A model generated the notes under the pieces. The model was not told where the DNA came from and did not search any database. It saw only the letters and a program-made list of their open reading frames with translations. DNA of 64,000 nt from Pseudomonadota bacterium (GTDB lineage Bacteria; Myxococcota_A; Polyangia; Palsa-1104; JAEUJZ01), in NCBI GenBank assembly GCA_035328405.1, contig DAOLIT010000010.1, forward strand, positions 3,529-67,528, in the 5' to 3' direction. A program made the position numbers and the translations under genes. Below are positions 7,170 through 62,626 of this stretch, piece after piece; position 1 is the first letter of the stretch, and every line of letters begins with the position of its first letter.

Positions 7170-8732
7170 ATGACCTTGACCCTGCGAGCGTTTTTGTGTT
7201 GTGCGTTGCTCAGTGCTCCGCTTTCGGTGGTGCGCGCCGACGGTCCGGCGGAAACCCCAAACTACGACGAACCCGAAACCAACCCGATCGACGACGGCCA
7301 AACGGGCCAAGTCTATCAACCCCCACCGGAAGGCATCTGTTTCGACGACGAAAACCAAATGTACGACTGTAGCAAAGACGAAGACTTCCAAAGCTACAGC
7401 AATCTCGACGACGGATACGACCCAAGCGCGTTCGACGACTTCCGAGACGCGCTTTCGCCGTACGGACAGTGGGTGCAGACACCACAGTATGGGCAAGTAT
7501 GGGTGCCTTCCTCAGATGCAGTCGGGCAGGATTTCACGCCGTATTACACCGGGGGCCGCTGGAACTACACCGACTATGGCTGGACCTGGGTTTCCGAATA
7601 CAACTGGGGGTGGGCCCCCTTCCATTACGGACGATGGCTTGTGCTGCCTGGGTTTGGTTGGTCTTGGGTGCCTGGGCGAATTTGGGGGCCCGCTTGGGTT
7701 CATTGGAGAACGGGCGGCGGGTATGTCGGTTGGACTCCTCTTCCGCCGCGCGGCATGGTGATCCCGCGACCTGTCATGGGAGCGCGCTTTTTGCCATGGG
7801 TATTCGTGGCTGCGCACGAAATTTTGGCCCCCCGTCCCATCAGAATCGGCCTGCACCTTCTGCCGAATCTTTTTCTGCGAACAACGATTGCGAACGACTA
7901 CCGATCGATCGGCACAAACCGGGTGATTGTCGGGCCTCCGTTGCATCACTTCCCCGGTGTCCGCGTCGTGCCTGCTCCGCTCGGTTCCATCCAAATTTCG
8001 TTGCCACGTTCCCACGTCGTTGTGCGTCCTGGCGTGCCTCTGTTTCAGCGAAGCTATTACTCTCCCTACAATCGACCGGGAGCATTCCAGGGACCACCCA
8101 ATCGTCCGGGGTTCCCGCTTCCTTATCAACGTCCGGGGTTCCCGCCTCCTTATCAACGTCCGGGGTTCCCGCCTCCTTATCAACGTCCGGGGTTCCCGCC
8201 CCCTTATCAACGTCCGGGGTTCCCGCCGGCTGGGCAGAATCCGGGTTTTCCATCTCCTCATCAGCGTCCGGGGTTCCCTCCGCCCTCTCAAAGGCCGGGA
8301 TTCCCAACGGAGCCGACGCAACGACCCCCTGTTTTCCAGCCAGGACCTCAGCCACCGCTGCACAGGCCACCGATTTTTCAACGACCTGGCCACGATGAAC
8401 ACCCGCATCCAAACATGCCGCCCCAGCAGCAGCCCCAAGTTCCAGAGCATCGGCCCCCTTCCTATCCGCGCCCTACGTTTGAACCGCGCCCCGTTCCGCC
8501 TCCGGTACAGCGCCCTACTTTTGAACCGCGCCCCGTTCCGCCTCCGGTACAGCGCCCTACGTTTGAACCGCGCCCCGTTCCGCCTCCGGTACAGCGCCCT
8601 ACTTTTGAACCGCGCCCCGTTCCGCCTCCGGTCCACCGGCCTCCGGTGTTTCAGCCCCCTATGCATTCCCCGGCGACTCGCGTCGTCCAGCCTCCACCGC
8701 CGACGGGTCAACCCGCCTTTCGCCGTCGGTAA
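7170..8732 (+). CDS. secreted W/G/Y-rich domain protein with two proline-rich tandem repeat arrays
   Basis: Signal peptide MTLTLRAFLCCALLSAPLSVVRA; RBS GTGAGGAG 10 nt upstream. Trp-rich domain (YGQWVQTPQYGQVWVP...GWTWVSEYNWGWAPFHYGRW). Repeats (PGFPPPYQR)x~6 and (PTFEPRPVPPPVQR)x4. Confidence 0.7.
   Translation: MTLTLRAFLCCALLSAPLSVVRADGPAETPNYDEPETNPIDDGQTGQVYQPPPEGICFDDENQMYDCSKDEDFQSYSNLDDGYDPSAFDDFRDALSPYGQWVQTPQYGQVWVPSSDAVGQDFTPYYTGGRWNYTDYGWTWVSEYNWGWAPFHYGRWLVLPGFGWSWVPGRIWGPAWVHWRTGGGYVGWTPLPPRGMVIPRPVMGARFLPWVFVAAHEILAPRPIRIGLHLLPNLFLRTTIANDYRSIGTNRVIVGPPLHHFPGVRVVPAPLGSIQISLPRSHVVVRPGVPLFQRSYYSPYNRPGAFQGPPNRPGFPLPYQRPGFPPPYQRPGFPPPYQRPGFPPPYQRPGFPPAGQNPGFPSPHQRPGFPPPSQRPGFPTEPTQRPPVFQPGPQPPLHRPPIFQRPGHDEHPHPNMPPQQQPQVPEHRPPSYPRPTFEPRPVPPPVQRPTFEPRPVPPPVQRPTFEPRPVPPPVQRPTFEPRPVPPPVHRPPVFQPPMHSPATRVVQPPPPTGQPAFRRR
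8100..8235 (+). repeat. 30-bp in-frame tandem repeat x~4.5 (encodes PGFPPPYQRP)
   Basis: Direct read of near-identical 30-nt units 'cgtccggggttcccgcctccttatcaa'. Confidence 0.9.
8470..8645 (+). repeat. 45-bp in-frame tandem repeat x4 (encodes PTFEPRPVPPPVQRP)
   Basis: Direct read of four near-identical 45-nt units. Confidence 0.9.
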
Positions 8733-39194: not shown

Positions 39195-41288
39195 ATGTCC
39201 AACACTTTGCGTTTTGCGTTCGCGCTGGGTCTTGCGGTTTCGCCCGCCGTTTTCGCCGGTTGTGACAGCGAATACGGCGAGGATTTCCAGACGACGGCCA
39301 TCATGAACGGCGGTGACTGGCGCGACGAGGTGATTTACCAAGTCATCGTTGACCGATTTGCCGACGGGGACTTGAACAACAACCACCGCGTGATGCCAAG
39401 CGCACTCGGGCGATACCAGGGCGGGGATTGGCAAGGTCTCATCGACCATCTCGATTATTTGGAAGCGCTCGGTGTGACGGCGCTGTGGATTTCTCCGGTC
39501 GTGAAAAACATCGATTACGACGCGGGTTTCGACGGATACCACGGCTATTGGACGCAATCGTTTACCAAAGTGAATCCGCACTTCGGCTCGCCTGCGAAAC
39601 TGCGCGAGCTGGTGCAAAAAGCGCACGACCGAAAGATGAAAGTCGTGCTCGACCTTGTGACGAACCACGTCGGGCAACTTTTTTACTACGACATCAACGG
39701 AAACGGGCAGCCCGACGAAATTGTGACGGGTTCAGAGTCGCTCGATCCGGTTGATCCGATGGCGCGGCTGGCTCGAGCCGACGAGTATGACCCGGACTTT
39801 GACCGGCGCGGCATTCAAGGACGAAACGGTCTGGGACCAGCGGGCCCGGCGCTGATTCGTTTCCTGAACATGCCGGAAATCAACCGCGTCGTGCCCGACC
39901 CGATCCGTTTTGGAGAAGGCAAGGACGACGTGCTCGATTTCAGGCGGCCCGGTGTGTACAACCGGCGCGGTCGCGTCACCAATTACGACAAGTGGGAACA
40001 ACTGACGACGGGAGATTTTCCAGGCGGGCTCAAGGACCTGGACACGCGGCGCAACGATGTACGCAAAGGTCTCATCACGGCGTTTGCCAAACTTGTCCGA
40101 GAGTACGATTTCGACGGCTTTCGGATCGACACGCTCAAACACGTCGAACACGAGTTTTGGCAAGACTTTGCACCCGCCATTCGCGGTTACGTGCGCGGCG
40201 AGCAAGGTCTTTACGGTGTCGAGCCGTTGTCGCGACCCAAGAAAAATTGGTTCATGTTCGGCGAAGCCTTCGACGGCGACGACGCGCTGCTCGGTGAGTA
40301 CACGTACTACAACGAGGTCGATTCCGTCTTCTACTTCTCCCAGAAGTTTCAGGTGTATCAGGATGTGGTCAAGTGCAGCGGCAAGACGAGCGGGGCGGCG
40401 CGGCTGTGGAACGACAGGCTGCGTTTTGACACGACTTCGATGACACCGGCGGTTCATGGTCCGTACCGGAATCCGGGCCGCTTCAAAACCATGGATGGTG
40501 CCTTGCTGGCCGACCCCGTCGCGGGCAAACCGATTTACAACCAAAGCCCGCTGCCAGGCGGAGCCGTGGACAGCCAAGGCAACGGCGTCGCACCCGCGCG
40601 TTTGCTTGTGAACTTTTTGGACAACCACGACGTGGCGCGCTTCTTGTCGCCGATCGACGGCTGTTATGTCGATGCAAAAGAGGCCGTTCGGCGGCTGCAC
40701 AACGCGGTCAGTCTGCTGTTTTTGCAAGACGGCATTCCGTGCCTGTACTACGGCACCGAACAGGAATTTTCCGGCGGAAACGACCCCGCGAACCGCGAGC
40801 GCATGTTCGACAACTTGATTGAAAACGTCTATCGCGGCGCGTCCTCGATGCAGCGCGAAACGATGTCCCAAACCGGCTTTTCGCAAGACACCGAGACGTT
40901 CAAGTGGGTGGCTCGTCTTGCGTCGCTGCGCAAAGCCATTCCTGCGCTTCGCCGAGGCGACCTGAAAGTGACGTGGGCGACCGATCGAACGGGCAACGAG
41001 GCTGACGCGGGCATCTTGGCGTTCACGCGCACCGACGGCGACAAGAGCGTGCTCGTCGTCACGAATGTTCACAACGGCCAGACCAGCCAGACGGAATTTT
41101 CCGGCATTCAAATGAAGGTTCCGTTCCGTTCCGGCACGCGGCTTGTCGAGGTGCTTCGCGATCCGCTCGATGGCACAAACGAGAACACGTACCTCGTCCC
41201 CGCGACCCAAACCATCACGGTGCGCGTCTCGTCCCGAGCCACCAAAGTCCTCGTCCCCGAACCCGAAGCCCCTACCCTGCCACGCTGA
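39195..41288 (+). CDS. alpha-amylase family glycoside hydrolase (GH13) lipoprotein
   Basis: Lipobox VFAGC. GH13 regions 'DRFADGD', 'VLDLVTNHVG', 'GFRIDTLKHVEHEFW', 'FGEAFDG', 'FLDNHDVARF'. Confidence 0.88.
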   Translation: MSNTLRFAFALGLAVSPAVFAGCDSEYGEDFQTTAIMNGGDWRDEVIYQVIVDRFADGDLNNNHRVMPSALGRYQGGDWQGLIDHLDYLEALGVTALWISPVVKNIDYDAGFDGYHGYWTQSFTKVNPHFGSPAKLRELVQKAHDRKMKVVLDLVTNHVGQLFYYDINGNGQPDEIVTGSESLDPVDPMARLARADEYDPDFDRRGIQGRNGLGPAGPALIRFLNMPEINRVVPDPIRFGEGKDDVLDFRRPGVYNRRGRVTNYDKWEQLTTGDFPGGLKDLDTRRNDVRKGLITAFAKLVREYDFDGFRIDTLKHVEHEFWQDFAPAIRGYVRGEQGLYGVEPLSRPKKNWFMFGEAFDGDDALLGEYTYYNEVDSVFYFSQKFQVYQDVVKCSGKTSGAARLWNDRLRFDTTSMTPAVHGPYRNPGRFKTMDGALLADPVAGKPIYNQSPLPGGAVDSQGNGVAPARLLVNFLDNHDVARFLSPIDGCYVDAKEAVRRLHNAVSLLFLQDGIPCLYYGTEQEFSGGNDPANRERMFDNLIENVYRGASSMQRETMSQTGFSQDTETFKWVARLASLRKAIPALRRGDLKVTWATDRTGNEADAGILAFTRTDGDKSVLVVTNVHNGQTSQTEFSGIQMKVPFRSGTRLVEVLRDPLDGTNENTYLVPATQTITVRVSSRATKVLVPEPEAPTLPR

Positions 41289-41400
41289 ACCACGCTGAGG
41301 AGAAACGAAAACAGGTGCCGAATCCGCGTGTTTGGAAGTGGATGCTGGCGGGCGGTGAAAATTTGTTATGTATGGGCGGTTTGTTGCGACCGCCTCGCGA

Positions 41401-41482
41401 GCCCGAGTGGCGAAATTGGTAAACGCAGAGGACTTAAAATCCTTAGCCGCATGGCGTGTGGGTTCGATTCCCGCCTCGGGCA
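41401..41482 (+). tRNA. tRNA-Leu (anticodon TAA)
   Basis: Cloverleaf: acceptor GCCCGAG/CTCGGGC, D-arm, anticodon loop cTTAAaa, long variable arm, T-arm GTGGG-TTCGATT-CCCGC, discriminator A. Confidence 0.85.
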
Positions 41483-41527
41483 CAAAAACGCTGCGCATTC
41501 CCAAAGACTTCGGCCTACAGTCCCGCC

Positions 41528-42016
41528 ATGGAACCGTCGGGCACGTCTTCTTCGGACATCGCAGTTTTTGCAAAGCCGCCTCTCAAGCTTGAGCGGCGCA
41601 ACCATGCTCGAGTGGCGCTGCGCGTGACGGTGACGACGCGGGTTTTCTCTGCGACCGCGCCGCCTCTTGTCCTGGTCGGCCAGTCCACCGATGTAGGTTT
41701 GGGAGGCATGCGGCTGTTTCGTTTCGCCCAGCAAGACGAGCCCCGGCTGCACACCGACAGCATCGTGCTCGTTTCGTTTGATCTGCCCACGGGCGCTGTT
41801 CTCTGCGACGTGCCGTGTTCGCTCGTATTCGAGGTCGTGCAAGGCAAACGCCACAACGTCCGCATGTCTGGCCTGTCTTTTTTGTCGCTTCACCCGAACC
41901 AGGAAGCCGCGCTCAAGACCTTTCTTCGCTCGCAGAAGAAAGCGAAACGTCCGTCGCGCGAACGTGCAGCGCAAGCTGATAAAGCTTCCTCCTCGGTTGG
42001 CCGGTCAACACGGTGA
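41528..42016 (+). CDS. PilZ-domain protein (c-di-GMP binding)
   Basis: 'RRNHARVALRVTVTT' (RxxxR) and 'STDVGLGGMRL' (DxSxGG) motifs. Confidence 0.7.
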   Translation: MEPSGTSSSDIAVFAKPPLKLERRNHARVALRVTVTTRVFSATAPPLVLVGQSTDVGLGGMRLFRFAQQDEPRLHTDSIVLVSFDLPTGAVLCDVPCSLVFEVVQGKRHNVRMSGLSFLSLHPNQEAALKTFLRSQKKAKRPSRERAAQADKASSSVGRSTR

Positions 42017-42809
42017 GCGCCGTCGAGATGTCTTTGGCCGTTTCCCCTCGCAACAGCCGTTTTCGCACTTCCTGTTCCACATCCAATTGAGCCGCCTCGC
42101 CGTCGCAAAGCGCGCCTTCTTCCGCCCCGGCCACCACCAGCGTGATTTCGCCGCGCACCGGCTGCGCAACCAGTTTTTGGGAAAGCTCGCCCAGCGTTCC
42201 GCGCAGCGTTTCCTCGAACAGTTTGGACAGCTCGCGCGCCACCACCGCCTGCCGACGTTCGCCCAGCACCTTCGCCAAATCGCCCACCGTGTGCGCCACG
42301 CGCTCTTTCGATTCGTAAAACACGAGCGTCCCCGGTTCCTGCCGAAGCGAGCCAAACAGCGCGAGCCTTGGACCCTCATCCCGAGGCGGAAAACCCACAA
42401 ACAAAAAACGCTGCGTCGGCAAACCCGACACCACCAGCGCGTGGAGCACCGCGCTCGGTCCCGGCACGACTTCCACCGGAATCTTTTGTGCGTGCGCCGC
42501 CGCCACCAAACCCTGTCCGGGGTCCGAGATGCCCGGCATGCCCGCATCCGTCACGAGCGCCACGGTTTTTCCCGCCAAAAGCTCCGACACAAGTTCCTGC
42601 TCGCGTGCCGTTTCATTGCCTGCGAAAAAACTCACCAGCCGACGATTCCCGACTGCAATCTGATGGTGCGAAAGCAGGTGCAACGCCTTCCGCGTATCTT
42701 CTGCGGCCAGAATCTCGACCGTCGCCAGCACGCGCAGCGCACGCAGGGTCACATCTTCCATGTTGCCGATCGGCGTACCGACGACAAAGAGCCTTCCCTT
42801 AGCCGACAC
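41913..42809 (-). CDS. rsmI: 16S rRNA (cytidine1402-2'-O)-methyltransferase
   Basis: 'GRLFVVGTPIGNMEDVTLRALRVL', 'VALVTDAGMPGISDPG'. Start placed at GTG (VSAKGRLF...) to limit overlap with murC; 3' end overlaps the PilZ gene by ~100 nt. Confidence 0.8.
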   Translation of the reverse strand: MSAKGRLFVVGTPIGNMEDVTLRALRVLATVEILAAEDTRKALHLLSHHQIAVGNRRLVSFFAGNETAREQELVSELLAGKTVALVTDAGMPGISDPGQGLVAAAHAQKIPVEVVPGPSAVLHALVVSGLPTQRFLFVGFPPRDEGPRLALFGSLRQEPGTLVFYESKERVAHTVGDLAKVLGERRQAVVARELSKLFEETLRGTLGELSQKLVAQPVRGEITLVVAGAEEGALCDGEAAQLDVEQEVRKRLLRGETAKDISTALTVLTGQPRRKLYQLALHVRATDVSLSSASEERS

Positions 42810-44247
42810 TTTTGCACTCCGCGTCTTGAAAACCGGGCACCTCGGCAAGTTCCGCGAGGAACCTGGGCCCCACTGCGGAAATGTCCCCGGCCCCGAGCGT
42901 GATCACCACATCGCCCGGTTTGCAGCCGCGCGCCATCTCTTGTGCAAGCTCTTCTTTGTCCACAAAGCGCACCCCTTTGTGCCCCTGTTCCCGGATGTTC
43001 TCGACCAGAATCCGAGCATCCACACCCGGAATCGGCGTTTCCCCCGCCGCATAAATGTCCGTCACGAGCAGCAGGTCCGCATCCGCAAACGCGCACGAAA
43101 AATCCGCAAACAGATCCCGCGTCCGTGTGTATCTGTGCGGCTGAAACGCAACGAGCAACCGCCGCGAGGGGAATGCCGCTTTCGCACCACGCAGCGTCGC
43201 TCGGATTTCCGTTGGATGATGCCCGTAATCGTCCACCAGCAGCACTTCCTGTTCGCCCTGACCTACCCTGCCCCGGACCGAGAAACGCCGTGACACCCCC
43301 GAAAAGGTCCGCAGCGCCTGAGCAGATACCTCAAACGGAATGCCCAACCCCTCTGCCACCGCCAGCACCGCGAGCGCATTCTGCACGTTGTGCGCCCCGA
43401 CGAGCGGAAGCTCCACCGGTCCCAAACAGGTGTCTTGCCGATACGCGACAAAACTCGACGTGAGCCCCGAAAACGCCAACTTGCGCGCGTGAAAATGCGC
43501 CCCTTCCGACAACCCATACGTGACCACCCGCTTGTTCAGCGCCCGTGCCAGGTCGCGCAACACCTCGTGGTCCCAGCACAACACCGCCCGCCCAAAGAAC
43601 GGCACTTTTTCCAAAAACGCCAAGAACGCCGCCCGCAACGCCCTTTCGTCTCCGTAAAAATCCAGGTGTTCTGGATCGATGTTCGTGACCACCGCCACCG
43701 TCGGTGTCAGGTGCAAAAAGGAGCCGTCCGATTCGTCCGCCTCGGCCACCAAGTACTCCGACTGGCCCAGCCGAGCATTCGACCCGAGCGCGGGCAACCG
43801 GCCTCCGACCACGATCGTCGGGTCCAATCCGGCGGCGTGCAGCACCGTCGCAATCAGCGAGGTCGTCGTCGTTTTTCCGTGCGAACCCGCGACCGCAATC
43901 CCGTACCGCAGCCGCATCAGCTCGGACAGCATTTCCGCGCGGCGAATCACCGGGATTCCCTTTTTCCGGGCCTCCTCCACCTCGGGATTCCCCCGCATCA
44001 CGGCGCTCGTCGTCACGACCACATCCGGTTCCTCACCCAGCAGCAAAAGATGGCTCGCGTCGTGTCCCTGCCGAATCACCGCGCCCAATTCGCACAACCG
44101 CTTTGTCGTGTCGCCGAGTTTCAGATCGCTCCCAGAAACCCCACACGCCATCCCCAAGAGCACCTCGGCGATGCCGGACATGCCGATGCCACCAATCCCA
44201 ACGAAGTGAACCCGTGTCGAGGGCTGTCTACGGACAAAAAGCGTCAT
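42799..44247 (-). CDS. murC: UDP-N-acetylmuramate--L-alanine ligase
   Basis: 'VHFVGIGGIGMSGIAEVL', 'VAGSHGKTTTTSLIA', Mur ligase middle and C-terminal domains. Confidence 0.92.
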   Translation of the reverse strand: MTLFVRRQPSTRVHFVGIGGIGMSGIAEVLLGMACGVSGSDLKLGDTTKRLCELGAVIRQGHDASHLLLLGEEPDVVVTTSAVMRGNPEVEEARKKGIPVIRRAEMLSELMRLRYGIAVAGSHGKTTTTSLIATVLHAAGLDPTIVVGGRLPALGSNARLGQSEYLVAEADESDGSFLHLTPTVAVVTNIDPEHLDFYGDERALRAAFLAFLEKVPFFGRAVLCWDHEVLRDLARALNKRVVTYGLSEGAHFHARKLAFSGLTSSFVAYRQDTCLGPVELPLVGAHNVQNALAVLAVAEGLGIPFEVSAQALRTFSGVSRRFSVRGRVGQGEQEVLLVDDYGHHPTEIRATLRGAKAAFPSRRLLVAFQPHRYTRTRDLFADFSCAFADADLLLVTDIYAAGETPIPGVDARILVENIREQGHKGVRFVDKEELAQEMARGCKPGDVVITLGAGDISAVGPRFLAELAEVPGFQDAECKSVG

Positions 44248-44321
44248 GGCCGCCGACCCTATCACGGTTCGCCAAAAACCGACGGTGGCGGTTTTGGGCC
44301 CACGAAGCCGCAGCCAATCCT

Positions 44322-44636
44322 CACCAGGCTTAGGGCAATCGGCGTGGGGCTTCGGGCAATTGGCGTGGGGGCTCGGGCAATTGACGTGGGGGCTCGGGCA
44401 ATTGACGTGGGGCTTAGGGCAATTTGCGTGGGGGCTCGGGCAATTGGCGTGGTTGCGCGGGCAATTGGCGTGGGGCTTCGGGCAATTGGCGTGGGGGCTC
44501 GGGCAATTGACGTGGGGGCTCGGGCAATTGACGTGGGGCTTAGGGCAATTTGCGTGGGGGCTCGGGCAATTGGCGTGGTTGCGCGGGCAATTGGCGTGGG
44601 GCTTCGGGCAATCGGCGTGGGGCTTAGGACGTTGTG
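44322..44636. repeat. 21-bp tandem repeat array (~15 units, gggcaattggcgtgggggctc-like) with 147-bp higher-order duplication
   Basis: Direct read. Units differ at a few positions (a/c at unit pos 9, ctc/ttc/tta, one variant 'ggttgcgc'). The 7-unit block is repeated twice nearly exactly. Lies between murC and the OLD-family gene; no spacers, so not CRISPR. Confidence 0.9.
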
Positions 44637-44643
44637 GTGGGGC

Positions 44644-46560
44644 TCATGGCGCGGTCAGCAGATCGAGCAGGGTTCGGATTTCCAAAGGAATGGCCCGATG
44701 GAGGTCCGGCAAGAGGTTTCGCTCTGCTTGCTCGACGATCTCGACCAGCGAACCCCGCAACGCAAAAGACCCCTTGGGCAACGTGTCGCGCAGCGCCTGC
44801 AGAAGAACGCGGGACCGGTCTTTTCCATGCTGAAAGACCGCCGGGTTTTCACGCACATCGGCGCGGGCCCGCTGGTTGGCGGTGTTTTCATCGAGCATCT
44901 TGCCGTCTTTGTCCGGGCGGCGATGCACCGCACGCCGACCATCGACCGCCTGATCTTCCAGGGCTCGGTCTTCGTCGGCCTTTTTCACCGCTGCGTCAAG
45001 CTGTGCCACAAGGTCCTCAGGCGCAAGGCGGATGTGCGGCGCAAGCCAAGCACTCAAACAGCGTGAGTCCAAAAACAGGCTCTCGATGCTGTGTCTAGAC
45101 CACGTAGCCTCCACCACCACGAGGTGGTTGGCCAGATTCGTGCTGGTGGGCGCTTTGGGTTCGCGGCCAAAGTCGCGATCTTTGACGAGGGCCGCTCTCA
45201 CCGGGACCCCGCTCTGCAAGGTGGGGAAGAGCGCAGGCGTGAGCAGTGCCTTCAACACGCCTTGGGCGCTCGCGTTGCCCACACCGTTGAGCGGAACGGG
45301 CGTGTAGTCCAAGAAGCGCTGCCAGCGATCCTGTTGATCTGCGTACAAGAGGCGAGCACAGGCTCGCAGAAACTTGTAGTCCGACGGCCCCTCGTAAAAA
45401 AGAACGCGACGAGACGCTAGAAAGTTCAAGGCCGTAAACGGCGTCAAATCACAGAAGGACCCAAGGGCTGCCACGATGTCAGAATCGTTGCGCAGCACAG
45501 CCACCGAAGGCGTGGCCTTTCGATCGACGTGAAGCAGCACAGCATCCCGGCGCTGTCCCAGGCGATTTGTCACCTCGACCGAGTGGGTGGCCAACACAAG
45601 CTGAACGCCAAACGTATGAAGCGCCAACTGGGTAAGCGCCTCGGCGGCCTCGGCCTGCAAACGCGGATGCAGATGCGCCTCTGGTTCATCGAGCAGAAAC
45701 AGGACGGGGCGGTTTTCGCTCTCTACTCGCTGCACCTGAAGGAGCTTCATCGCCGAAAACAGCGCAACAAGGTTGACCAGGCCCGAGCCCGCAGAAGACA
45801 GTTCCAGCTCTCCGTTGTCATCTTGAAAGTAGACGTGCAGATCGGCAGTGTTCTCGGCGTCGGCCTGCGCCGTTCTCCGCGTCAGGCGCGTCCCGAGCGG
45901 CGCAAGCAGCGTGCGGTTCAACTGCTCGAGGTCGGCGGCATCCAGTCGAGCAACCAAGTTCCGCACGATGTGGCTTTGATCGCCGCTGCCCAGCAACCGA
46001 GTCAACAGGGGACGCGACCGATGCTCCTCTGTCCGAATCACCCCATAGAACGCAGGGACAAACACAGACAGCGGATAGAGGCGCCCGAGGTCCATCTGCA
46101 GACGCGCTTTCACGTCCGATTTTCGAGCCATTCCCGATACCGATGCCAACGCCTGACGAGACCGTACCGCTACACTGCGCAAAAGCTGCCGGTTGCGTCC
46201 GTAGTGAAAGCTCACCCACAGTTCCTGGAGCGCATCTGTCTCATCGAAGGCCAGGGTGATGTCCAGGCTTGTGCCGTCCCCCACTTGCGCATGGTGAAAC
46301 AGTTGGGTCCAGTCGGACAAACCCACAAGCGCGCTCGGATCGGACACCACTTCCTTGCGAGAAGTCCAAATCCATCCGTCCGGGACTCGCTCTGGGAGGA
46401 ACGCGGCGGTCTGCGCCAGCGACTCACAAGCCAAACGGATCGCTTGCAGCACCGTGGATTTGCCCGAGCTGTTCTTGCCAATCAGCACGGTCACGTCGGA
46501 GAGATCCGCTTGAAACGCTGCAAAGCCTCGGTAGTTGGTGAGCTCGACCTTGCGTAACAT
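44644..46560 (-). CDS. OLD-family ATP-dependent endonuclease (ABC-type ATPase + TOPRIM), class-1 (solo)
   Basis: N-terminal 'LRKVELTNYRGFAAFQADLSDVTVLIGKNSSGKST' (Walker A), 'LFLLDEPEAHLHPRLQ' (Walker B/D-loop). C-terminal TOPRIM-like 'VLFYEGPSDYKFL' and 'VKDRDF' (DxD). Confidence 0.7.
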   Translation of the reverse strand: MLRKVELTNYRGFAAFQADLSDVTVLIGKNSSGKSTVLQAIRLACESLAQTAAFLPERVPDGWIWTSRKEVVSDPSALVGLSDWTQLFHHAQVGDGTSLDITLAFDETDALQELWVSFHYGRNRQLLRSVAVRSRQALASVSGMARKSDVKARLQMDLGRLYPLSVFVPAFYGVIRTEEHRSRPLLTRLLGSGDQSHIVRNLVARLDAADLEQLNRTLLAPLGTRLTRRTAQADAENTADLHVYFQDDNGELELSSAGSGLVNLVALFSAMKLLQVQRVESENRPVLFLLDEPEAHLHPRLQAEAAEALTQLALHTFGVQLVLATHSVEVTNRLGQRRDAVLLHVDRKATPSVAVLRNDSDIVAALGSFCDLTPFTALNFLASRRVLFYEGPSDYKFLRACARLLYADQQDRWQRFLDYTPVPLNGVGNASAQGVLKALLTPALFPTLQSGVPVRAALVKDRDFGREPKAPTSTNLANHLVVVEATWSRHSIESLFLDSRCLSAWLAPHIRLAPEDLVAQLDAAVKKADEDRALEDQAVDGRRAVHRRPDKDGKMLDENTANQRARADVRENPAVFQHGKDRSRVLLQALRDTLPKGSFALRGSLVEIVEQAERNLLPDLHRAIPLEIRTLLDLLTAP

Positions 46561-46620
46561 GGCCGGGAATCTATCACAGCCCTGTTACCGCTCAGTCGAG
46601 CAAACGCGCTGCGGTGAATC

Positions 46621-49056
46621 TTAGTAATCGAAACGGAGGCCCAGGTTGGGGAAGATCGGCAGGCCGACGACTCGGCCTTGTTGGTAGAGCTGGCGGCCTC
46701 CGTACAAGAGGCTTTCGGCGTTCTTGCGGTTGTACAGGTTCTGGATTTCCACATAGAAACCGAACCGAAAGCGCCGGAACAAAAACGTCTTGTCCACACG
46801 CACATCCAGCTGGTGAAAGTCCGGCAGGCGCACGGAATTGGGTTCCCCCGAAACGCCTTGGTAGTACTGCCCGGACACGTCGCGGAGGCCCCCAACAAGC
46901 TCGGTGGTGGGATTGCCGGTCACGTACCGGAACCGCGCCCCGCAAAGCAGCCCCCACGGCAATTGATAGGACAAGACGGCGGTCAAGATGTGCGTCTGGT
47001 CAAACCGAAAGAGCCGCCAAGGTTCCTCTGGGTGATCGCGCCGTTCGGAACGGGACAGGGTGTACGCCAAAAAACCCCACAGTCCCCGCCACAGAGGTTG
47101 ACGGGCCAGAAACTCGCCTCCGTACACACGCCCGAGCCCATCGTTGGAATACATCGTATGCGGATCGGACACGACGAGCTGCCGCAGGTCCTTGTAAAAC
47201 CCCTGTGCCTCTAGGTGCAGTCCCCCCGGCAAATCGGCATCCGCCCCCAATACATAGTGCGTGCCCGCTTGCCACGCGAGGTACGGATTCCCAAACAGAG
47301 GCGACAGCTCGGCCCCTTGCGGCGCTTGGTGATAGACCCCAATGCCTCCTTTCAAAAACAGCCTGTCCGGGACAAGCGTCGCGCGCAGCGTCAGCCTGGG
47401 CTCGACGAACAAAAGCGTCCGCGACACCGTGGTGAGGGCCGTCGCTTCACTGTCCTCCTCGCGACTGGGAATGCGAACATGGTCCGCAGACACCCGAAGC
47501 TGCGGCGACAATTCCAGCCGATTGTCGAACAGATGAAACCGCGCAATCAGATACGGAGACGTTTGCAGCAAGTGATAGAGGAGCAGCTCGCGCAGCACCG
47601 GCCCTGTGGAATCCGCGAAAAAACCGTCCCCAAAGAAACCATTTTCCGAACGGCCCGCGTCTTTCACCATGTCCGCTCCGCCGACCGGCAGGTTCTGGCT
47701 GTCTTGTGCCCCCTGCGCCAGCGGCATGAGCGTTTCGACTCGGGCGCGCACTCCCTCGAAGTCGAGTCCCAGCCCCACATCGAACCACTGCCGCCACTTC
47801 TTGTGAAATTCGCCGCGCAGGTTGTACCCAAGCTGAAGGACCTTGAGCGCCACCGGCTTGCCCCCCAACCCCTGATCCCCTGTCACCACCGAAAACGTGT
47901 CCCCCCCGATCGAAGGCATGAGCCACAGGACCGAATCCCCCGAAAAGCGATGGGTGTACCGCAAGCGCGCCCGGCCAAAATACGATTTGCTGTCGATGTG
48001 GACGCGGCTGTTGGGGTCGGGGTCGTCTACTTTCGCCGTGATGTTGCTGGTCGCTCCGAACACGAGCAGGTCCAGGTCGTCGCGCGGACCTGCGGCATAG
48101 TGCGCAGCCAGCTGGTAGTCCCAATAAAACGGAGAAAGCTGCGTGCTGCCCGAATTGAAAAGGGGCAAAAGCGCAGAAATCCAAGACACGCGCCCGCCCG
48201 CTGCGACGTGCAGTTTCTTTGTAACCGGGCCTTCGACCGTGACGCTCCCATCGATCAGGTCGAGCGTGATGGACCCGTGCCACCTATCGCTTTTGGGGCG
48301 GCGCGTGGCGACCTCGATCACCCCGCCCAGGCCCCTTCCGTAGTCGGCCCCGTACGCCCCCGGACGAAAGGACACGTCCGTCACAAACTCGGCGCTGATG
48401 GTCGAACGCACGCCGCCAAAGTGATAGACCCTCGGGATTTGCACCCCGTCCGCATAGACGCGGGTGTCCGATGGCGCAGAACCCCACACGACGATTTGCC
48501 CTCCTCCGAACGGCGCACGCGCGATGCCGGGCAAGTTCTGCATCGCTTTGATGGGATCGTTTTGTCCGCCCGGAATTTTCTTGAGCTCGGTCACAGACAA
48601 CGTGGTCGAGACGACCTCGCGGCGCAGCGGAGCGGCTTTGACGACCACCTCGAACGGATTGCCTTTGGGAGGCGCAAACAGCGTGATCTCAAGACGCCCC
48701 TTGGGCAGGTCCTGCTGGCCTTTTGTCGTCTGAATGCGCGCCGACCGCAGCGTCAAGTACACCGTCCCCGGCGCAAGACCGACAAGACGAAACCGGCCTT
48801 CCTCGTCCGTTTCCGTGACCACGGGCTTTTTGTCATCGGGCCAACGAGACACCGCGAGCTTCACAAAGGGCAGCGGGTCGCGCGTGCCTTGCTCTTTGAC
48901 GACGCCGAGGAATTCGCACAATTCCGAAAGCGGCGGAGGTTCGACTTCTTCTTCGCTTGGCGAGTCACTTGGCCGTTCTTCCGCCCGCACGACCTGCAAA
49001 AAACAAGCGACAAAACCAGGCACAAGCCACACAAGCCGAGCCAATCGTCCGCACAT
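46621..49056 (-). CDS. TonB-dependent outer membrane receptor (with N-terminal carboxypeptidase-regulatory-like domain)
   Basis: Signal peptide, plug-region 'DGVQIPRVYHFGGVRSTI', C-terminal beta-barrel ending '...LGLRFDY'. Confidence 0.85.
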   Translation of the reverse strand: MCGRLARLVWLVPGFVACFLQVVRAEERPSDSPSEEEVEPPPLSELCEFLGVVKEQGTRDPLPFVKLAVSRWPDDKKPVVTETDEEGRFRLVGLAPGTVYLTLRSARIQTTKGQQDLPKGRLEITLFAPPKGNPFEVVVKAAPLRREVVSTTLSVTELKKIPGGQNDPIKAMQNLPGIARAPFGGGQIVVWGSAPSDTRVYADGVQIPRVYHFGGVRSTISAEFVTDVSFRPGAYGADYGRGLGGVIEVATRRPKSDRWHGSITLDLIDGSVTVEGPVTKKLHVAAGGRVSWISALLPLFNSGSTQLSPFYWDYQLAAHYAAGPRDDLDLLVFGATSNITAKVDDPDPNSRVHIDSKSYFGRARLRYTHRFSGDSVLWLMPSIGGDTFSVVTGDQGLGGKPVALKVLQLGYNLRGEFHKKWRQWFDVGLGLDFEGVRARVETLMPLAQGAQDSQNLPVGGADMVKDAGRSENGFFGDGFFADSTGPVLRELLLYHLLQTSPYLIARFHLFDNRLELSPQLRVSADHVRIPSREEDSEATALTTVSRTLLFVEPRLTLRATLVPDRLFLKGGIGVYHQAPQGAELSPLFGNPYLAWQAGTHYVLGADADLPGGLHLEAQGFYKDLRQLVVSDPHTMYSNDGLGRVYGGEFLARQPLWRGLWGFLAYTLSRSERRDHPEEPWRLFRFDQTHILTAVLSYQLPWGLLCGARFRYVTGNPTTELVGGLRDVSGQYYQGVSGEPNSVRLPDFHQLDVRVDKTFLFRRFRFGFYVEIQNLYNRKNAESLLYGGRQLYQQGRVVGLPIFPNLGLRFDY

Positions 49057-49931: not shown

Positions 49932-52900
49932 TCAGGGCTCGCGGTCGGGGTCCTCCATCGTGGACTGCACCGTTGGAACCCCATCGTCATCCAGAGAGGA
50001 AACCGTCCCCCCGCGCCCCAGCGCAGTTCGGCCCGAAAACGTCAGCTCCTGGTTCATTTGGAAGAACGGATCGTTGTGTTCGTCGCGCAGTCCTTGCGAG
50101 GCCGTCATCCCCATGCCCGTCGAAGGATCGTTGGATTCAAAGCGGCCCCGCAGTTGAATGTGTTGGAAATTTTTGCGTTCCTTGTTCCACCGGAGAAGCT
50201 GCGGAAGTTTGGCTTCCAACTCTGCCGCTTTGGCATCGGGAAACGTCTGCCGCAGGTTCGTAAGTTGCGCATTTCGTTCCGCGAGCGCGGCTTGCTGCAA
50301 GTCGTAGCCCATCGGAACTTGCAGTTTCTGAATCATCTCCGGCGTGAGCGTCGCTTCGAGCACACGCAAATTCTCCGCGCCGTCGGGATTGACGGTCGCC
50401 AGGCCACTAGACTCCCGGTTCACGTAGGGGTTTTTGGTCGGGTCGGCGGTCACGTAATCCAGGCCCAGGTTCTTGATGCGCTGGTCGGCGTTCATCCCCT
50501 CGGTGTTCTGGAGCAGACCCACATCCCCACTGACCGTCCAATTCGGGGTTCCCTCTTTGTAGAACTTGTCCGCCGTATCGCCGCCGATGACCTTGGCGAT
50601 TTTTTGCCCCGCTTGCACGTCCTCGAACAGCGCAATGTTCATTTTGAGCAGCAGTTTGAGTTCCTGGTCGGTCAGCTTGCCCCGCGTTTGTCCAAGCGCA
50701 TCGACTTCCGAGTGCGCCCCGATCGTCCGATGTTCCGTCGCGGGTTTGCCAGCGTTCGTCTGCGCTTCCAACTCGCGCGCCACGCTGTCGGGCATCGTCG
50801 CCTGCTGGTTCTTTTTGATGGTGCCCTTGAGCACTTCGATCTCGTCGGGCGTAAAGCCTTTGGACCGCAGCCGTTCTTCGACCGTGCTGGCTTTGGGCAT
50901 CGTCTTTGGATCGACGCCCAGCTCGGTCGCGAAACCCTGCAACGTGCGCGCTTCATCGACACCGAGCACAGAACCATCCGCTTTCTTCTGGCCTTCCGCC
51001 TTTTTGTGTTCCGCCTCAGCCGCCAGCTCGCGCAACGCCTGTTCGTCGCCCTTTTTCCGCGCCGCGATTTCCTGTTCCCACTGGTTGACCATTTCGTGGT
51101 CTTCAGTGGTCTTCGCCTGAGCGCGCAGATCTTCGAGAGCTTGCTCGTCTGCCGACAGCTTCCGCTTCGGACGCCCCTTGTCATCCAGGGTGCTCTCTTC
51201 ACCCACCCCAGCCTTGGCGTTCTTTTTGACTTTCGCGTCCGCTTCGGTGTCCTTGGCCTTTTCGCCCGATTCCGGTCCCACCGGCTTGGCCTGGTCCGTT
51301 TTGCCCTTCTCTTGCGCAGAAGCGTCCTGGCTCTTTTCGTGCGGATCGGCGGCTTTCCCGTCTGCCACATCTTGGGGTTTTACCGGGTGGTCGTCCTGTT
51401 TGGCTTCCTCGTGCCGCGTTTTTTCCTGGTCCGCCTGTTGCTTGCTTTCTTTCACCGCTTCTTCGGGCGCTTTTTCGTTTTTCCCCTTCTGTTTTTCGGC
51501 GGCCACCTCCTTGTGCACCTCGCTCACGTCGTCCTTGTCGCCCTTCTTGCTGTCGCCGTGCGCACCTTCCTCTGACCCCGCATCGCCCCCCTGGTTTTGC
51601 TCGGCCTTCGGTTTGTCTGGCCCCTGATCTGGGGTTTGAGCCTGCGCTTTTTTCGCTTCCTTCAGCTCCGCACGGGTCTCCGCGATGCTGTCGAGCGACC
51701 CCGAAAGTCCTGCACCACCCACCGACGTCACCCATTTCTTCGCGATGTCTTCGGGACGGCCAGAAAACATGCTGGGATCGAGCACATTGGCGGCGGTCTG
51801 GCCCGCTGCGCTGCTGCTTCCGCCCTTGATGGCCGAGAACATGTACGGATTCATCCCGTTTGGACCGTTTCCAAACGCTTTTCCCACGCCTGCGCTCGTT
51901 CCACCGTTCACAAAACTCGTCAGCATGCTCGAACCGACTTGGCTACCCATTCCTTTCACGAAGTCGCCAAAGTCCCCCTGGTAGTTTTGCTCGTTCATCA
52001 GTCCGCCCACCAAGCTGTTGATTCCGTTTTGCCCCGCGCTCGACAACCCCCCTTTCAACATCGTTTGCAGCATCGTCGCCGTCTTCGGGTCCGCAATCCC
52101 CACAAGCTTGTTGAGCTGTCCTTCCAGGCCGGGCAGTTTGAACGCACCTGCCGTCAGCGCGCTCGCCAGCGTCGTCACCGCATCCACCCCGATGTCTTCG
52201 AGCGCATATCCGCCCTCCAGCATCACCCCTTTGACCGCCATGCTGCTCGCTCCGCCTAGGAGCGCGGACAGCGCCGCCACCACCGCGGGAGACGCCGAGC
52301 CCGCCGTCGCAATCGAAACCGCTGCCCCCACCACCACCGCTGCGCCCGTCGCCACTGCGTTGGTCGCCGAATCCTTCGCCGCCTGGTAGTTCTGCACGTC
52401 CTGACCTTGGTATTCCGTCAGCACGCCCAACCGATCTTTGGCCGCCCCAGACCACGACCCGTCTTTTTGGGCTTGCTGGGCCAAGTTGTTGATTCGCTGG
52501 TGTTGGTAATCGAGCACTTGCCCAGAATCCGAAAACAGATCCGTCACACCGCGCGAGAACCAGTTGCTGCCGCTGCCGCGATCAAATTCGTAGGCCTCGT
52601 TCGCCCGCGACACCATTTCCTCTGGCGTTTCGGGTTTGCCTTTCATCATTTGGCCGATTTCAAAGCCGTCGCGCCCGCTCACTTCGCCTTTGAGCAACGC
52701 ATCCAAATCTTGTCCGTATTTCTCTTTGTACGTTTTCCGCAGCTCATCGATTTCTGTTTTGGACTTGCCTTCCAGCGTCTTGCGAATCAGTTCCTCATTC
52801 GTGCCAATCCCGTTCGTTGCATATTTCAGCGCAAACTCATCGCTGATTTTTCCGTCTTTTTTCAGTTGATTCGCTTTTTCCAAATCGAGCCCGGACAGCT

Positions 52901-54131
52901 CACTTTTCAGCATCTGGTCGAAATTCTGTCCGCCCGCTTTGTTGCCATATTGCTGGTTGTATTTGGCAATCAGTTGTTCGCGTTCTTTTGGCGATTTGCC
53001 CTCCATCGACTTGAAGATCGCCTCTTCGTCCGTGCCCCAAAAGTCTTCGGACGCTACTTTGACCCGAGCCGCTTCTGCCCCTGCCTTGTCGCCCTTGAGC
53101 AAATTCGACGCCACATCTTTTTCGGCCCCAGAAAACTCGCGCCCAAGCGCCTTGGTCAACGGTTCGCCCGTCTTTTTCTGGTACGCCGCCGCCAGCGCCT
53201 TGCGTTCTTTTTCGTCTTTGCACGATTCGATGGCGTCATACACCCCGTTTTCATCCGTCCCCAAACCGAGGTTGAGAAAACCGCCATTCATCGCTTCATC
53301 CAGCTTCACTGCTGCCGCTTTTGCTTTGTCCCCTTCAAGCAACGCTTTCGACAGTGCCAAATCGTTCCCGGACATTTCGCTTTTGAGCATCTTGTCCAGG
53401 CTCTGGCCCGTCTTCTTTTCATACGCCGCCACGATCTGTTTGCGCTGCGCTGGGTCTGTCACATTTTCCAGAACCGATTGAATTTTCTTCTCATCGGTTC
53501 CCATTCCAAACATTCCGCCATGGGCCGCATTGTCGAGCGCCGCAACCGCACTCTTGACCGGATCTCCCGACAGAGCCGCCTGCGCTTCTTCCAGGTCTTT
53601 GCCCCCCAGCTCCCCTTTGATGTCGTTGTCCAGGCTGCGGCCAAAGTGGTCCTGATACGCCGCTTTGATCGCTTTGACCTCCGCAGGAGACTTCCCTCGC
53701 AGCGCATTGTGAATGGCGTCTTCGTCGGTGCCCCAACCATCCATCGCCTTGAAAAGCTGGTTGGCCGAATCCCGAACCGCTTTCGGATCGATCGGTTTCT
53801 CCTCAACTGCCGGCGCCGCCTTTTTCGCGTCGAGCTTCGGATCGAGCTTCGGATCGAGCTTCGGATCGAGCTTCGGGTCAACTTGTGGACCACGCTTGTC
53901 CATCGGCTTGTCTGGCAACGCAGCGGGCAACTTCCCTGGCAACACCGGGCCAATCGGAGAAACGGGGTCGCCAGGTCCTCCAGGCCCCTTGGACGGCGGC
54001 GGCATTTTGTTGCCACCTCCGAACAAACTGGTCACTTTGGACCAAATCCCCTGCTCTCCGCCCTTCTGAGCGTCGGGCTTTTGCGTGGTCGGTTTGTTCT
54101 TGTCGCCCTGAAAAAAATCGAACAACGACAT
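49932..54131 (-). CDS. large annexin-repeat polymorphic-toxin-like protein
   Basis: ATG start (MSLFDFFQG; the tracked ORF begins at an upstream TTG, 54143). 5-6 annexin repeats with the endonexin motif (K-G-x-G-T-[38]-D/E; e.g. KAMDGWGTDEDAIHNALRGKSPAEVKAIKAAYQDHFGRSLDNDIKGELGG). Then a Gly/Ala-rich hydrophobic block, a K/E/D-rich linker and a ~400-aa C-terminal region. No signal peptide. Confidence 0.75.
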   Translation of the reverse strand: MSLFDFFQGDKNKPTTQKPDAQKGGEQGIWSKVTSLFGGGNKMPPPSKGPGGPGDPVSPIGPVLPGKLPAALPDKPMDKRGPQVDPKLDPKLDPKLDPKLDAKKAAPAVEEKPIDPKAVRDSANQLFKAMDGWGTDEDAIHNALRGKSPAEVKAIKAAYQDHFGRSLDNDIKGELGGKDLEEAQAALSGDPVKSAVAALDNAAHGGMFGMGTDEKKIQSVLENVTDPAQRKQIVAAYEKKTGQSLDKMLKSEMSGNDLALSKALLEGDKAKAAAVKLDEAMNGGFLNLGLGTDENGVYDAIESCKDEKERKALAAAYQKKTGEPLTKALGREFSGAEKDVASNLLKGDKAGAEAARVKVASEDFWGTDEEAIFKSMEGKSPKEREQLIAKYNQQYGNKAGGQNFDQMLKSELSGLDLEKANQLKKDGKISDEFALKYATNGIGTNEELIRKTLEGKSKTEIDELRKTYKEKYGQDLDALLKGEVSGRDGFEIGQMMKGKPETPEEMVSRANEAYEFDRGSGSNWFSRGVTDLFSDSGQVLDYQHQRINNLAQQAQKDGSWSGAAKDRLGVLTEYQGQDVQNYQAAKDSATNAVATGAAVVVGAAVSIATAGSASPAVVAALSALLGGASSMAVKGVMLEGGYALEDIGVDAVTTLASALTAGAFKLPGLEGQLNKLVGIADPKTATMLQTMLKGGLSSAGQNGINSLVGGLMNEQNYQGDFGDFVKGMGSQVGSSMLTSFVNGGTSAGVGKAFGNGPNGMNPYMFSAIKGGSSSAAGQTAANVLDPSMFSGRPEDIAKKWVTSVGGAGLSGSLDSIAETRAELKEAKKAQAQTPDQGPDKPKAEQNQGGDAGSEEGAHGDSKKGDKDDVSEVHKEVAAEKQKGKNEKAPEEAVKESKQQADQEKTRHEEAKQDDHPVKPQDVADGKAADPHEKSQDASAQEKGKTDQAKPVGPESGEKAKDTEADAKVKKNAKAGVGEESTLDDKGRPKRKLSADEQALEDLRAQAKTTEDHEMVNQWEQEIAARKKGDEQALRELAAEAEHKKAEGQKKADGSVLGVDEARTLQGFATELGVDPKTMPKASTVEERLRSKGFTPDEIEVLKGTIKKNQQATMPDSVARELEAQTNAGKPATEHRTIGAHSEVDALGQTRGKLTDQELKLLLKMNIALFEDVQAGQKIAKVIGGDTADKFYKEGTPNWTVSGDVGLLQNTEGMNADQRIKNLGLDYVTADPTKNPYVNRESSGLATVNPDGAENLRVLEATLTPEMIQKLQVPMGYDLQQAALAERNAQLTNLRQTFPDAKAAELEAKLPQLLRWNKERKNFQHIQLRGRFESNDPSTGMGMTASQGLRDEHNDPFFQMNQELTFSGRTALGRGGTVSSLDDDGVPTVQSTMEDPDREP

Positions 54132-54147
54132 CTTGCCCCCCAAAACG

Positions 54148-57671: not shown

Positions 57672-57975
57672 GGTGCCAGACTTGGTGGTCTTGGATCGGG
57701 CCTTGGCGGTCTTGGACCTAGACTGGGTGGTCTTGGACCTCGACCTGGTGGTCTTGGACCTAGCCTTGGCGGTCTTGGACCTAGACTGGGTGGTCTTGGA
57801 CCTAGACTGGGTGGTCTTGGACCGGGCCTTGGTGGTGTTGGACTGAGACCTGGTGGTCTTGGACCTAGACTGGGTGGTCTTGGACCGGGCCTTGGTGGTG
57901 TTGGACTGACACCTGGTGGTCTTGGACCTAGACCTGGTGGTCTTGGACGTGGCCTTGGCGGTGTTGGACCTAGAC
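57672..57975. repeat. 21-bp tandem repeat array x14 (ggtcttggacctagactgggt-like)
   Basis: Direct read of 14 consecutive 21-nt units with point variants. Open in several frames on both strands. Confidence 0.9.
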
Positions 57976-58140
57976 TTGGTGAAGGATCGCTCCCGATTTG
58001 TGAATCTGTGTTCACTTTTTGTGATGGAAAAACCACGCAATCCTGAAAAAAAATTGCTTTTTTTCAGCGTTTCCCTTGCGGCGCGAGATTTTTGAACTAC
58101 ACATGTGGCACTCGCACTCTGCGAGAAAGGAGACCGCCTC

Positions 58141-61571: not shown

Positions 61572-62626
61572 ACCAGATCCGTTTGCAACTTTTTTTGGCC
61601 AAAGCAGGCATCGCGTCGCGCAGACACGCTGAGGCGCTCATCGTGCGCGGTCGCATCTCGGTGAACGGACATGTGGTCACGCAGCTTGGCACGCGCGTGG
61701 ACCCTGCGACCGATCGCATTTGGGTGGACGGAAAACTCGTCGAGCCCGAGCCGCTTGCGTATTACCTTTTGCACAAACCAAAAGGCTACGTCACAACCGC
61801 AGCGGACCCCGACGGCAGGCCCACGGTGTTCGATTTGCTCAAAAACGTGCCGGTGCGCGTGTTTCCCGTCGGACGGCTCGATTTCAACACCGAAGGCGTG
61901 TTGCTCTTGACAAATGACGGAGAACTCGCCCACGCCCTCATGCACCCAAGCCGGGGTGTGGAAAAGGTCTATCACGCCAAATTCCGCGAGGAACTCACGC
62001 AAAACATGCTCTCGCGCCTTCGTCAGGGCGTCGAGCTTCCGCCTCCGCGCATTTTGGGAAAAGACGGCGTGCCGTTGGCACAGCCTGCGCCGCTCGGGCC
62101 TCCCGAACGAAGTGCGCCCGCCGAAGTTCGGGTGCTGAAATTTACGTCCCGACACACCTGGGCCGAAATTCGGCTGCACGAGGGCAAAAACCGCCAAATT
62201 CACCGCATGGCCGAGGCGGTTGGCTCGTCGGTGCTGAAACTTACGCGGGTGCAATACGCCGGTCTTTCTGCGGAAGGTGTCGAGATGGGCGAATCTCGGC
62301 CTTTGTCGGCTGCCGAGGTGAAAAACCTGCGGCTTTTGTGTGGTTTGGCCCCTGCGCCAGGCCGACCCCTCGTGCCGCCGACGCAAAAAAAGCAAAAGAC
62401 ACCGAGTACACACAAACCGCCCGCGCGTCGCGCCGAAGCCGAACCTCCCTACGCAAAACCTGATTTTCCCCGCGCAAAACCCGATTTTCCCCGCGCAAAA
62501 CCCGATTTTCCCCGCGCAAAACCTGCTGGGCATGCCAGCACGAGGGCACCGGAACAATCGCCGCAGCCGGCCTCCCGGGGTTCGTCGAATCGGTTTCGTC
62601 CCCACGAAACGCCCCGCGTTCGCTGA
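61568..62626 (+). CDS. rluB: rRNA pseudouridine synthase (RluB/RsuA family) with repeat-containing C-terminal tail
   Basis: S4 domain '[31 protein letters not shown]'; catalytic '[21 protein letters not shown]'. Tail (KPDFPRA)x3. Confidence 0.88.
62455..62525 (+). repeat. 21-bp in-frame tandem repeat x3.5 (gcaaaacccgattttccccgc)
   Basis: Direct read within the rluB 3' region. Confidence 0.9.

Follow-up and report, generated by a model that had tools for sequence, protein, structure and literature searches.

What kind of protein is encoded by the single gene at positions 44644..46560 of the window, meaning the whole 64,000-nt stretch of contig DAOLIT010000010.1 (assembly GCA_035328405.1) that was analysed here, and what might it do for its host? 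The original prediction, made from the sequence alone, proposed a stand-alone class 1 nuclease of the OLD family, with an ABC/SMC-type ATPase followed by a TOPRIM domain, and regarded it as a probable defence gene inserted among housekeeping genes. In our analysis, the gene falls into a small, mostly Myxococcota clade of the OLD family that appears nearest to AriAB-like proteins (i.e., fused PARIS-type proteins with a DUF4435-like TOPRIM), and its function is most likely stand-alone, abortive-infection-type anti-phage defence, a reading to which we give a probability of about 0.62. As predicted, the gene is a complete open reading frame (ORF) of 638 amino acids (aa):

44644..46560, minus strand: OLD-family ATPase-TOPRIM gene encoding a single polypeptide; complete ORF with an ATG start, 638 aa plus stop.

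A protein identical to this product (P0001) is present on 5 metagenome contigs. Residue numbers are protein positions counted from the ATG, with alignments and AF2 models beginning at codon 2, and residue conservation was counted in an alignment of 43 full-length homologues. The features of the N-terminal half are as follows:

45526..46560, minus strand: ABC/SMC-type ATPase domain containing an insertion, aa 1 to about 345 (Pfam AAA_15 and AAA_21).
46453..46479, minus strand: Walker A motif (P-loop) GKNSSGKST, aa 28-36; G28 and K34 invariant (43/43).
45664..45702, minus strand: Walker B and D-loop-like motif LFLLDEPEAHLHP, aa 287-299; D291, E292, H296, and H298 each 43/43.
45583..45585, minus strand: H-loop histidine H326, invariant (43/43).

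Judged from its sequence, the N-terminal half is clearly an ABC ATPase of the OLD/AriA/GajA type. Foremost among the Pfam matches above their cutoffs were AAA_15 (E 7.4e-28) and AAA_21 (E 7.1e-21), joined by DUF2813 of the YbjD family (E 9.4e-10), and together with the invariant K34, D291/E292, and H326 these bear out the ATPase that had been proposed. Of the PADLOC models for the ATPase, AriA ranked best (2e-29), followed by NsnB, GajA, Old (E 1.7e-20), and AriAB. Moreover, the LFLLDEPEAHLHP motif lines up with Walker B in GajA, PtuA, and TsOLD, while H326 is taken as the counterpart of TsOLD H310 (PMC7049728), as judged by motif order rather than by direct alignment. A Foldseek search with the full-length model gave TsOLD (PDB ID: 6p74) as the top hit (E 2.6e-12), with PtuA and GajA next, and the same structure is the best profile match of the protein in the PDB. 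Matches in NCBIfam were all sub-threshold and included PtuA, MAD3, the retron Eco8 effector, and RecF. Here, an assignment to the RecF/SbcC/Rad50 housekeeping families, which the original prediction had itself named as an outcome that would count against it, was rejected, since the RecF score (34.3 bits against a cutoff of 172) and the Pfam SMC_N score (26 against 40) are far under their cutoffs and no synteny is conserved in 21 family loci.

The nuclease half is made up of the following features:

45070..45411, minus strand: OLD-type TOPRIM domain, aa about 384-497.
45379..45393, minus strand: E390-G-P-S-D394, candidate metal A glutamate and metal B aspartate; E390 43/43, D394 D in 42 and E in 1.
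45172..45180, minus strand: D461-R462-D463 (DxD), candidate metal A ligands; each residue 43/43.
45082..45090, minus strand: S491-I-E493, candidate metal B ligands; E493 43/43, position 491 S in 35, C in 7, and G in 1.

This is a TOPRIM of the OLD type in which both predicted metal sites are kept and the catalytic residues are intact. By experiment, the metal-binding residues of TsOLD are E377, D431, and D433 for metal A and D381, S478, and E480 for metal B (PMC7049728). When these are mapped by motif and spacing, E390 and D394 are spaced as E377 and D381, D461/D463 correspond to D431/D433, and the SxE pattern corresponds to S478/E480; the LFYEGPSD region, in addition, lines up with IEGPSE of GajA. 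In Foldseek, the TOPRIM domain found AriB with a probability of 1.0 and the C-terminal region of the Xcc class 2 protein with 0.92, and as modelled it is structurally closest to AriB. The TOPRIM with an E...DxD signature that had been predicted is borne out by E390, D461, and D463 as well as by the AriB match, and the catalytic residues, whose absence on alignment would have told against the prediction, are present and conserved throughout the homologues. In fact, all four motifs named beforehand lie where they were placed, namely GKNSSGKST at aa 28, LFLLDEPEAHLHP at aa 287, LFYEGPSD at aa 387, and VKDRDF at aa 459.

Profile searches with the C-terminal part were less direct. Scanned alone, aa 346-638 gave no Pfam match at E ≤ 10, DUF4435 included, and in PADLOC only one GajA model (E 0.005) with no match to the AriB models. 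The hidden Markov model search proposed at the outset has thus placed AAA_15 and AAA_21 above their cutoffs, but yields no direct Pfam match for DUF4435 or TOPRIM in this region. When the C-termini of 22 family members were scanned singly, PF20469 (OLD-like_TOPRIM) was the only Pfam family to recur (7/22, best E 0.002), and the PADLOC matches were to GajA (6/22, best 7.5e-6), AriAB (2), and Old (2).

Following the TOPRIM, the protein ends in a further domain:

44647..45069, minus strand: C-terminal all-helical domain of ~140 aa, aa about 498-638; confident in the model.
44815..44826, minus strand: G579-K/R580-x-R582 motif, candidate catalytic basic residue; G579 and R582 43/43, position 580 K in 28, R in 14, and H in 1.

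We infer that the G-K/R-x-R motif may supply the catalytic basic residue, because the K562 of class 2 enzymes likewise comes from the helical domain.

To which branch of the OLD family, then, does this protein belong? In hhalign comparisons, the family profile matched the AriAB-like protein P0223 with a probability of 99.9 (E 3.6e-31, 523 columns) and kept the EG-SD, DRD, and W-RH-IE motifs aligned, whereas P2 Old was matched more weakly (probability 95.6, E 1.3e-8, 390 columns), in an alignment that ends past the second TOPRIM strand. An exhaustive search with the C-terminal profile, covering 1.84 billion cluster representatives, found beyond the family AAA_15/AAA_21 proteins with sub-threshold DUF4435, mostly with AriAB as the top PADLOC model. 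On the 638-aa protein itself, the PADLOC AriAB model covers aa 276-412 only (66 bits) and Pfam DUF4435 has no match.

As regards organisation, a conserved neighbour (helicase, reverse transcriptase, or any other gene) was looked for within ±8 kb in 21 family loci and none was found, so the stand-alone label holds; the predicted absence of an adjacent UvrD-like helicase (GajB) is likewise confirmed, both here and in those loci. Nor does the gene have the make-up of the multi-gene OLD classes. Its neighbours are a receptor-like gene and murC instead of the UvrD/PcrA/Rep-like helicase GajB that adjoins the nuclease in class 2 (Gabija); an Rfam scan of 41000-47000 gave tRNA-Leu as the sole match and no reverse transcriptase is found among its neighbours, at variance with class 3 (OLD/retron); and both domains lie in one ORF, where class 4 (PARIS) has AriA and the DUF4435 protein AriB as separate adjacent genes. 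The length range used for class 1 OLD proteins is about 500-600 aa (PMC12392090), and most members of the present family, at about 610-680 aa, are outside this range. The class 1 label given originally therefore stands as far as a single stand-alone gene is concerned, but not for a protein of 638 aa with an extra helical domain and a closer match to AriAB-like fusions than to P2 Old. The protein is class 1 only in the organisational sense, with the AriAB-like proteins as its nearest recognisable branch rather than P2 Old or TsOLD. The literature leaves it unclear if AriAB fusions encoded by one gene are distinct from class 1 (PMC10568477); we therefore file the protein as an OLD-family member and do not claim PARIS membership.

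Alternatively, the protein could be a classical class 1 nuclease of the P2 Old/TsOLD type, i.e., a homodimeric and largely non-specific DNA exonuclease or nickase whose likeness to AriB reflects a general similarity among OLD TOPRIM domains. The single gene without a partner, the first place of TsOLD in both the full-length Foldseek search and the PDB profile comparison, and the PADLOC Old match all fit such an enzyme, yet its length, a C-terminal helical domain that TsOLD does not have, the lack of a conserved residue at the spacing of TsOLD R487, and the truncated match to P2 Old speak otherwise, and we consider it on the whole unlikely.

The AriAB-like defence reading draws further on how the family is distributed. 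The family of the C-terminal domain is small: of the 1.84e9 representatives, 138 match at E ≤ 1e-3, a number that falls to 77 at E ≤ 1e-30, and the strong matches mostly share the same architecture, the shorter ones resembling fragments. Full-length members come chiefly from Myxococcota (Sorangium, Chondromyces, Sandaracinaceae, Kofleriaceae, Archangium, and Hyalangium), with copies of 35-38% identity in a few gammaproteobacterial metagenome-assembled genomes (MAGs), and some are publicly annotated as "ATP-dependent nuclease" or "GajA/Old nuclease/RecF-like". A scan of 185,579 species genomes gave at least about 21 full-length copies among the best 80 loci. Homologues from several myxobacterial orders are conserved over their full length at 40-50% and retain every catalytic residue. 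The Sorangium copies share only 37-50% identity among themselves, that of So ce1335 being nearer to the Hyalangium and Archangium copies (58-60%), and the gene has different surroundings in Sorangium, in Sandaracinus, and in L006, a relative of 78% identity. Such a small, patchy, and taxonomy-incongruent family in varying contexts fits a horizontally exchanged accessory gene rather than a vertically inherited housekeeping gene, and the pattern would be consistent with an accessory defence gene. In Chondromyces apiculatus DSM 436, two loci matched (L029 and L031), of which the shorter L031 (1130 nt) may be a fragment or a divergent paralogue. A decayed copy lies on the Leptolyngbya boryana megaplasmid pLBX (L122 4938-6338), where it is 32% identical to aa 191-635, split into two short coding sequences, and adjoined by IS4 transposase, ParA, and integrase genes. 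Carriage by phages or plasmids was considered and rejected, this decayed cyanobacterial copy being the sole plasmid match of interest and 50,697 phage records having given no match.

The same distribution bears on the possibility that myxobacteria keep this enzyme for a cellular role outside defence, be it in the cell cycle like archaeal Cran1 or in RecF/SbcC-like genome maintenance. Its native composition, its location among housekeeping genes, the conservation of full-length sequence and catalytic residues across myxobacterial orders, and the Cran1 precedent (PMC12796447) would suit such a role, as would a Sandaracinus sp. MAG (L009 7817-11923) in which the family member lies directly downstream of an Ada/AlkA fusion gene and beside an Ogt methyltransferase gene, both of alkylation repair, though at that locus only. 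Against this, the copies are patchily distributed (at least about 21 full-length ones among the best 80 loci), diverge strongly within a genus, and are incongruent with taxonomy; synteny is not conserved, the gene is missing at the murC locus of close relatives, and the RecF model of NCBIfam is far under its cutoff. A Cran1-like role is less likely because of this patchy and incongruent distribution, and we hold a non-defence function to be distinctly improbable.

The immediate setting of the gene matches its earlier description, with a receptor-like gene on one side and a tandem-repeat array on the other:

46621..49056, minus strand: receptor-like gene upstream of the OLD gene, 811 aa, CarboxypepD_reg and Plug domains; 60-bp gap, same strand.
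44327-44625: tandem array of 14 21-bp units downstream of the OLD gene, with murC beyond it.

An operon with the upstream receptor was rejected, since the pairing is confined to contigs of the same strain or species and is absent in relatives. MurC puts the host among the Polyangia/Myxococcota, with the nearest relatives only ~66% identical. In three of these (L123, L124, and L125), the murC-rsmI-PilZ-(HAD)-amylase block (window 39195-44247) is syntenic (MurC 66%, RsmI 70%, and alpha-amylase 82%), while both of its flanks are rearranged. Upstream of murC, the three relatives carry genes for Metallophos, an aminotransferase, ArgRS, MutY, QueF, and RNase R, none of which occurs anywhere in the 64-kb window. 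Close relatives are without the OLD gene at this locus, and the break in synteny falls exactly at the start of the tandem array and OLD gene, on the 5' edge of the conserved murC block. The receptor gene, a 213-aa ORF, and an annexin-repeat gene are likewise non-syntenic with the relatives, and receptor homologues of 78% identity have neither the OLD gene nor murC nearby. A synteny test from the receptor side was uninformative, in that 31 loci with receptor homologues have no other gene in common with the window.

The OLD gene, then, sits in a plastic region. The comparison with relatives that the original prediction called for finds the gene lacking at their murC locus and the break beside it, so that a defence gene inserted among housekeeping genes is plausible, though on circumstantial grounds. 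However, the GC content at the three codon positions of the OLD gene (0.69/0.44/0.70) equals that of its neighbours, and with a native composition and a whole upstream region that differs from relatives, the data do not show that this one gene was inserted by itself or recently.

How might such a protein act? In GajA, bound ATP maintains the closed state; P2 Old becomes active when ATP is hydrolysed; and AriA sequesters AriB. By analogy with these precedents, the ATPase module would serve as a sensor or switch that holds the TOPRIM nuclease off, until a phage-derived cue frees this metal-dependent, two-metal effector. The freed nuclease might then nick or degrade DNA, as do TsOLD, Vc OLD, and GajA, or cut tRNA anticodon arms in the manner of AriB (PMC12409363) and P2 Old (PMC12445682). 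As modelled, the AriB-like fold would lean slightly towards a tRNA substrate, without discriminating it from DNA. That a stand-alone OLD gene can suffice for defence is in keeping with the anti-phage phenotypes described for P2 Old, Vc OLD, and, on induced expression, E. coli YbjD (PMC12392090, PMC13261556, and PMC12445682), and class 1 OLD genes are typically isolated (PMC10568477).

A variant of this scheme is one in which the TOPRIM is not the effector, the ATPase domain alone giving the phenotype and the nuclease being dispensable or regulatory. This is reported for E. coli YbjD, whose Toprim domain is said to be dispensable and whose ATPase domain essential (PMC13261556), and the N-terminal DUF2813 match is to the YbjD family. 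Here, however, E390, D461, D463, E493, and the G-K/R-x-R motif are strictly kept across the homologues, which argues for selection on nuclease catalysis, and we regard an ATPase-only effector as very improbable. Going beyond the AriAB-like placement, the clade might represent a distinct, unclassified OLD class. Its single polypeptide would join an ATPase like that of AriA to a TOPRIM like that of AriB and to a helical domain giving an invariant arginine (G-K/R-x-R), and would act on its own as a PARIS-like abortive-infection switch that cleaves tRNA and answers to a separate trigger; this is put forward tentatively and seems to us rather unlikely.

Several observations weigh against the favoured reading, some on the anti-phage role and others on the nuclease. 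No defence island or other defence gene is found among the neighbours of the OLD gene in the window, a search of 50,697 phage records yielded no homologue, and a foreign origin by base composition was rejected for lack of any compositional signal, the native make-up giving no sign of recent transfer. The archaeal Cran1, moreover, is an OLD class without a defence role (PMC12796447). With respect to catalysis, the C-terminal domain is under every Pfam gathering threshold, and a HMMER search of PDB sequences with the family profile of the C-terminus retrieved no solved TOPRIM. R500, the spacing equivalent of TsOLD R487, is unconserved among the homologues, and R582 and K/R580 of the helical domain are no more than candidates for the catalytic basic residue. 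Shown here are the folds of the domains, the conservation of the catalytic residues, the absence of a partner gene, and a distribution like that of accessory genes; the role in defence, the trigger, and the substrate are inferred.

To our knowledge, the phage defences of Myxococcota are almost unexplored, and within the widespread OLD defence family the proteins encoded by one gene form the branch understood least. With a TOPRIM that Pfam does not recognise and fully conserved catalytic residues, the present gene offers a handy one-gene test case for how an ABC ATPase with no partner controls a TOPRIM nuclease, whether fusions cut DNA or tRNA, and how Myxococcota defend themselves against phages. 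It leaves the present picture of OLD biology unchanged and is a solid, if fairly ordinary, find.

Some further features of the region deserve mention. At the start of the OLD gene, a short motif was observed:

46558..46577, minus strand: GTGATAGATTCCCGGCC-ATG, the OLD start codon and the motif preceding it; no Shine-Dalgarno sequence.

The pattern GTGATAG-N6-7-GGCC-ATG precedes the starts of both the OLD gene and murC (44245-44265, minus strand), each without a Shine-Dalgarno sequence, and occurs 3 times in the window against 0.06 expected. Speculatively, it could serve as a -10-like element where transcripts are leaderless.

Besides the array at 44327-44625, the window has intergenic tandem arrays at 57678-57981, 62452-62523, 8103-8305, and 8468-8632. 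The arrays are built on a unit of 21 bp, or two helical turns, and show a super-period of 63 bp, with unit sequences that differ between arrays, and the one beside the OLD gene holds a CAATTG core. The alignment with the near-identical metagenome contig L002 breaks inside this array, which is about 34 nt shorter in L002 and suggests copy-number polymorphism. In the 78%-identical relative, unrelated 21/22-bp arrays lie on both sides of the OLD gene. A functional link between the gene and the arrays was rejected in favour of a general intergenic feature, as arrays flank 4 of 22 family loci, their units are unrelated, and similar ones are found elsewhere in the window.

Annexins are uncommon in bacteria. 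The annexin-repeat protein at 49932-54143 (minus strand) is 1403 aa long. It carries several annexin repeats, which Pfam Annexin matches in the JGI copy, and its C-terminal part is long, of low complexity, and rich in Lys, Glu, and Asp. At ~41312-41344, beside tRNA-Leu(taa) (41401-41483), L002 has an extra segment of ~1.2 kb (L002 15183-16367) that encodes a 107-aa hypothetical protein and a DUF433 protein. The ends of the alignment share ~32 nt at this point, suggesting a small element inserted beside the tRNA gene.

In comparison with known systems, the protein resembles class 1 (P2 Old; Thermus scotoductus OLD, PDB ID: 6P74; Vibrio cholerae Vc OLD; E. coli YbjD) in being an isolated single gene with an ABC ATPase followed by a TOPRIM, in the pattern and spacing of metal A (E, DxD) and metal B (D, SxE), and in having 6P74 as its best full-length structural and profile match. 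It differs in being about 50-110 aa longer, in its extra C-terminal helical domain, which TsOLD is without (PMC7049728), and in having no conserved equivalent of R487 at that spacing. With class 2 (Gabija GajA; the C-terminal regions of BpOLD and XccOLD, and B. cereus GajA), it shares a TOPRIM followed by a helical domain, which there gives the catalytic lysine K562, and the weak matches of the family C-termini are mostly to GajA models, but a UvrD/GajB-like helicase is found neither beside this gene nor in any of the 21 family loci. Cran1 (a class 5 archaeal OLD ATPase-nickase) is alike in its OLD architecture and in being set among cellular genes; unlike the present patchy and incongruent family, it is conserved across Sulfolobales, undeletable, and cell-cycle regulated. 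PARIS is further marked by an AriA hexamer as scaffold, by Ocr as trigger, and by cleavage of tRNA-Lys, and the present protein is compared with it by sequence and model. There, AriA and AriB are split, whereas here the two domains are fused and the DUF4435 and PADLOC AriB models have no match. Nonetheless, AriA is the best PADLOC model for the ATPase, and a two-metal TOPRIM is common to this protein and to PARIS and its AriAB fusions.

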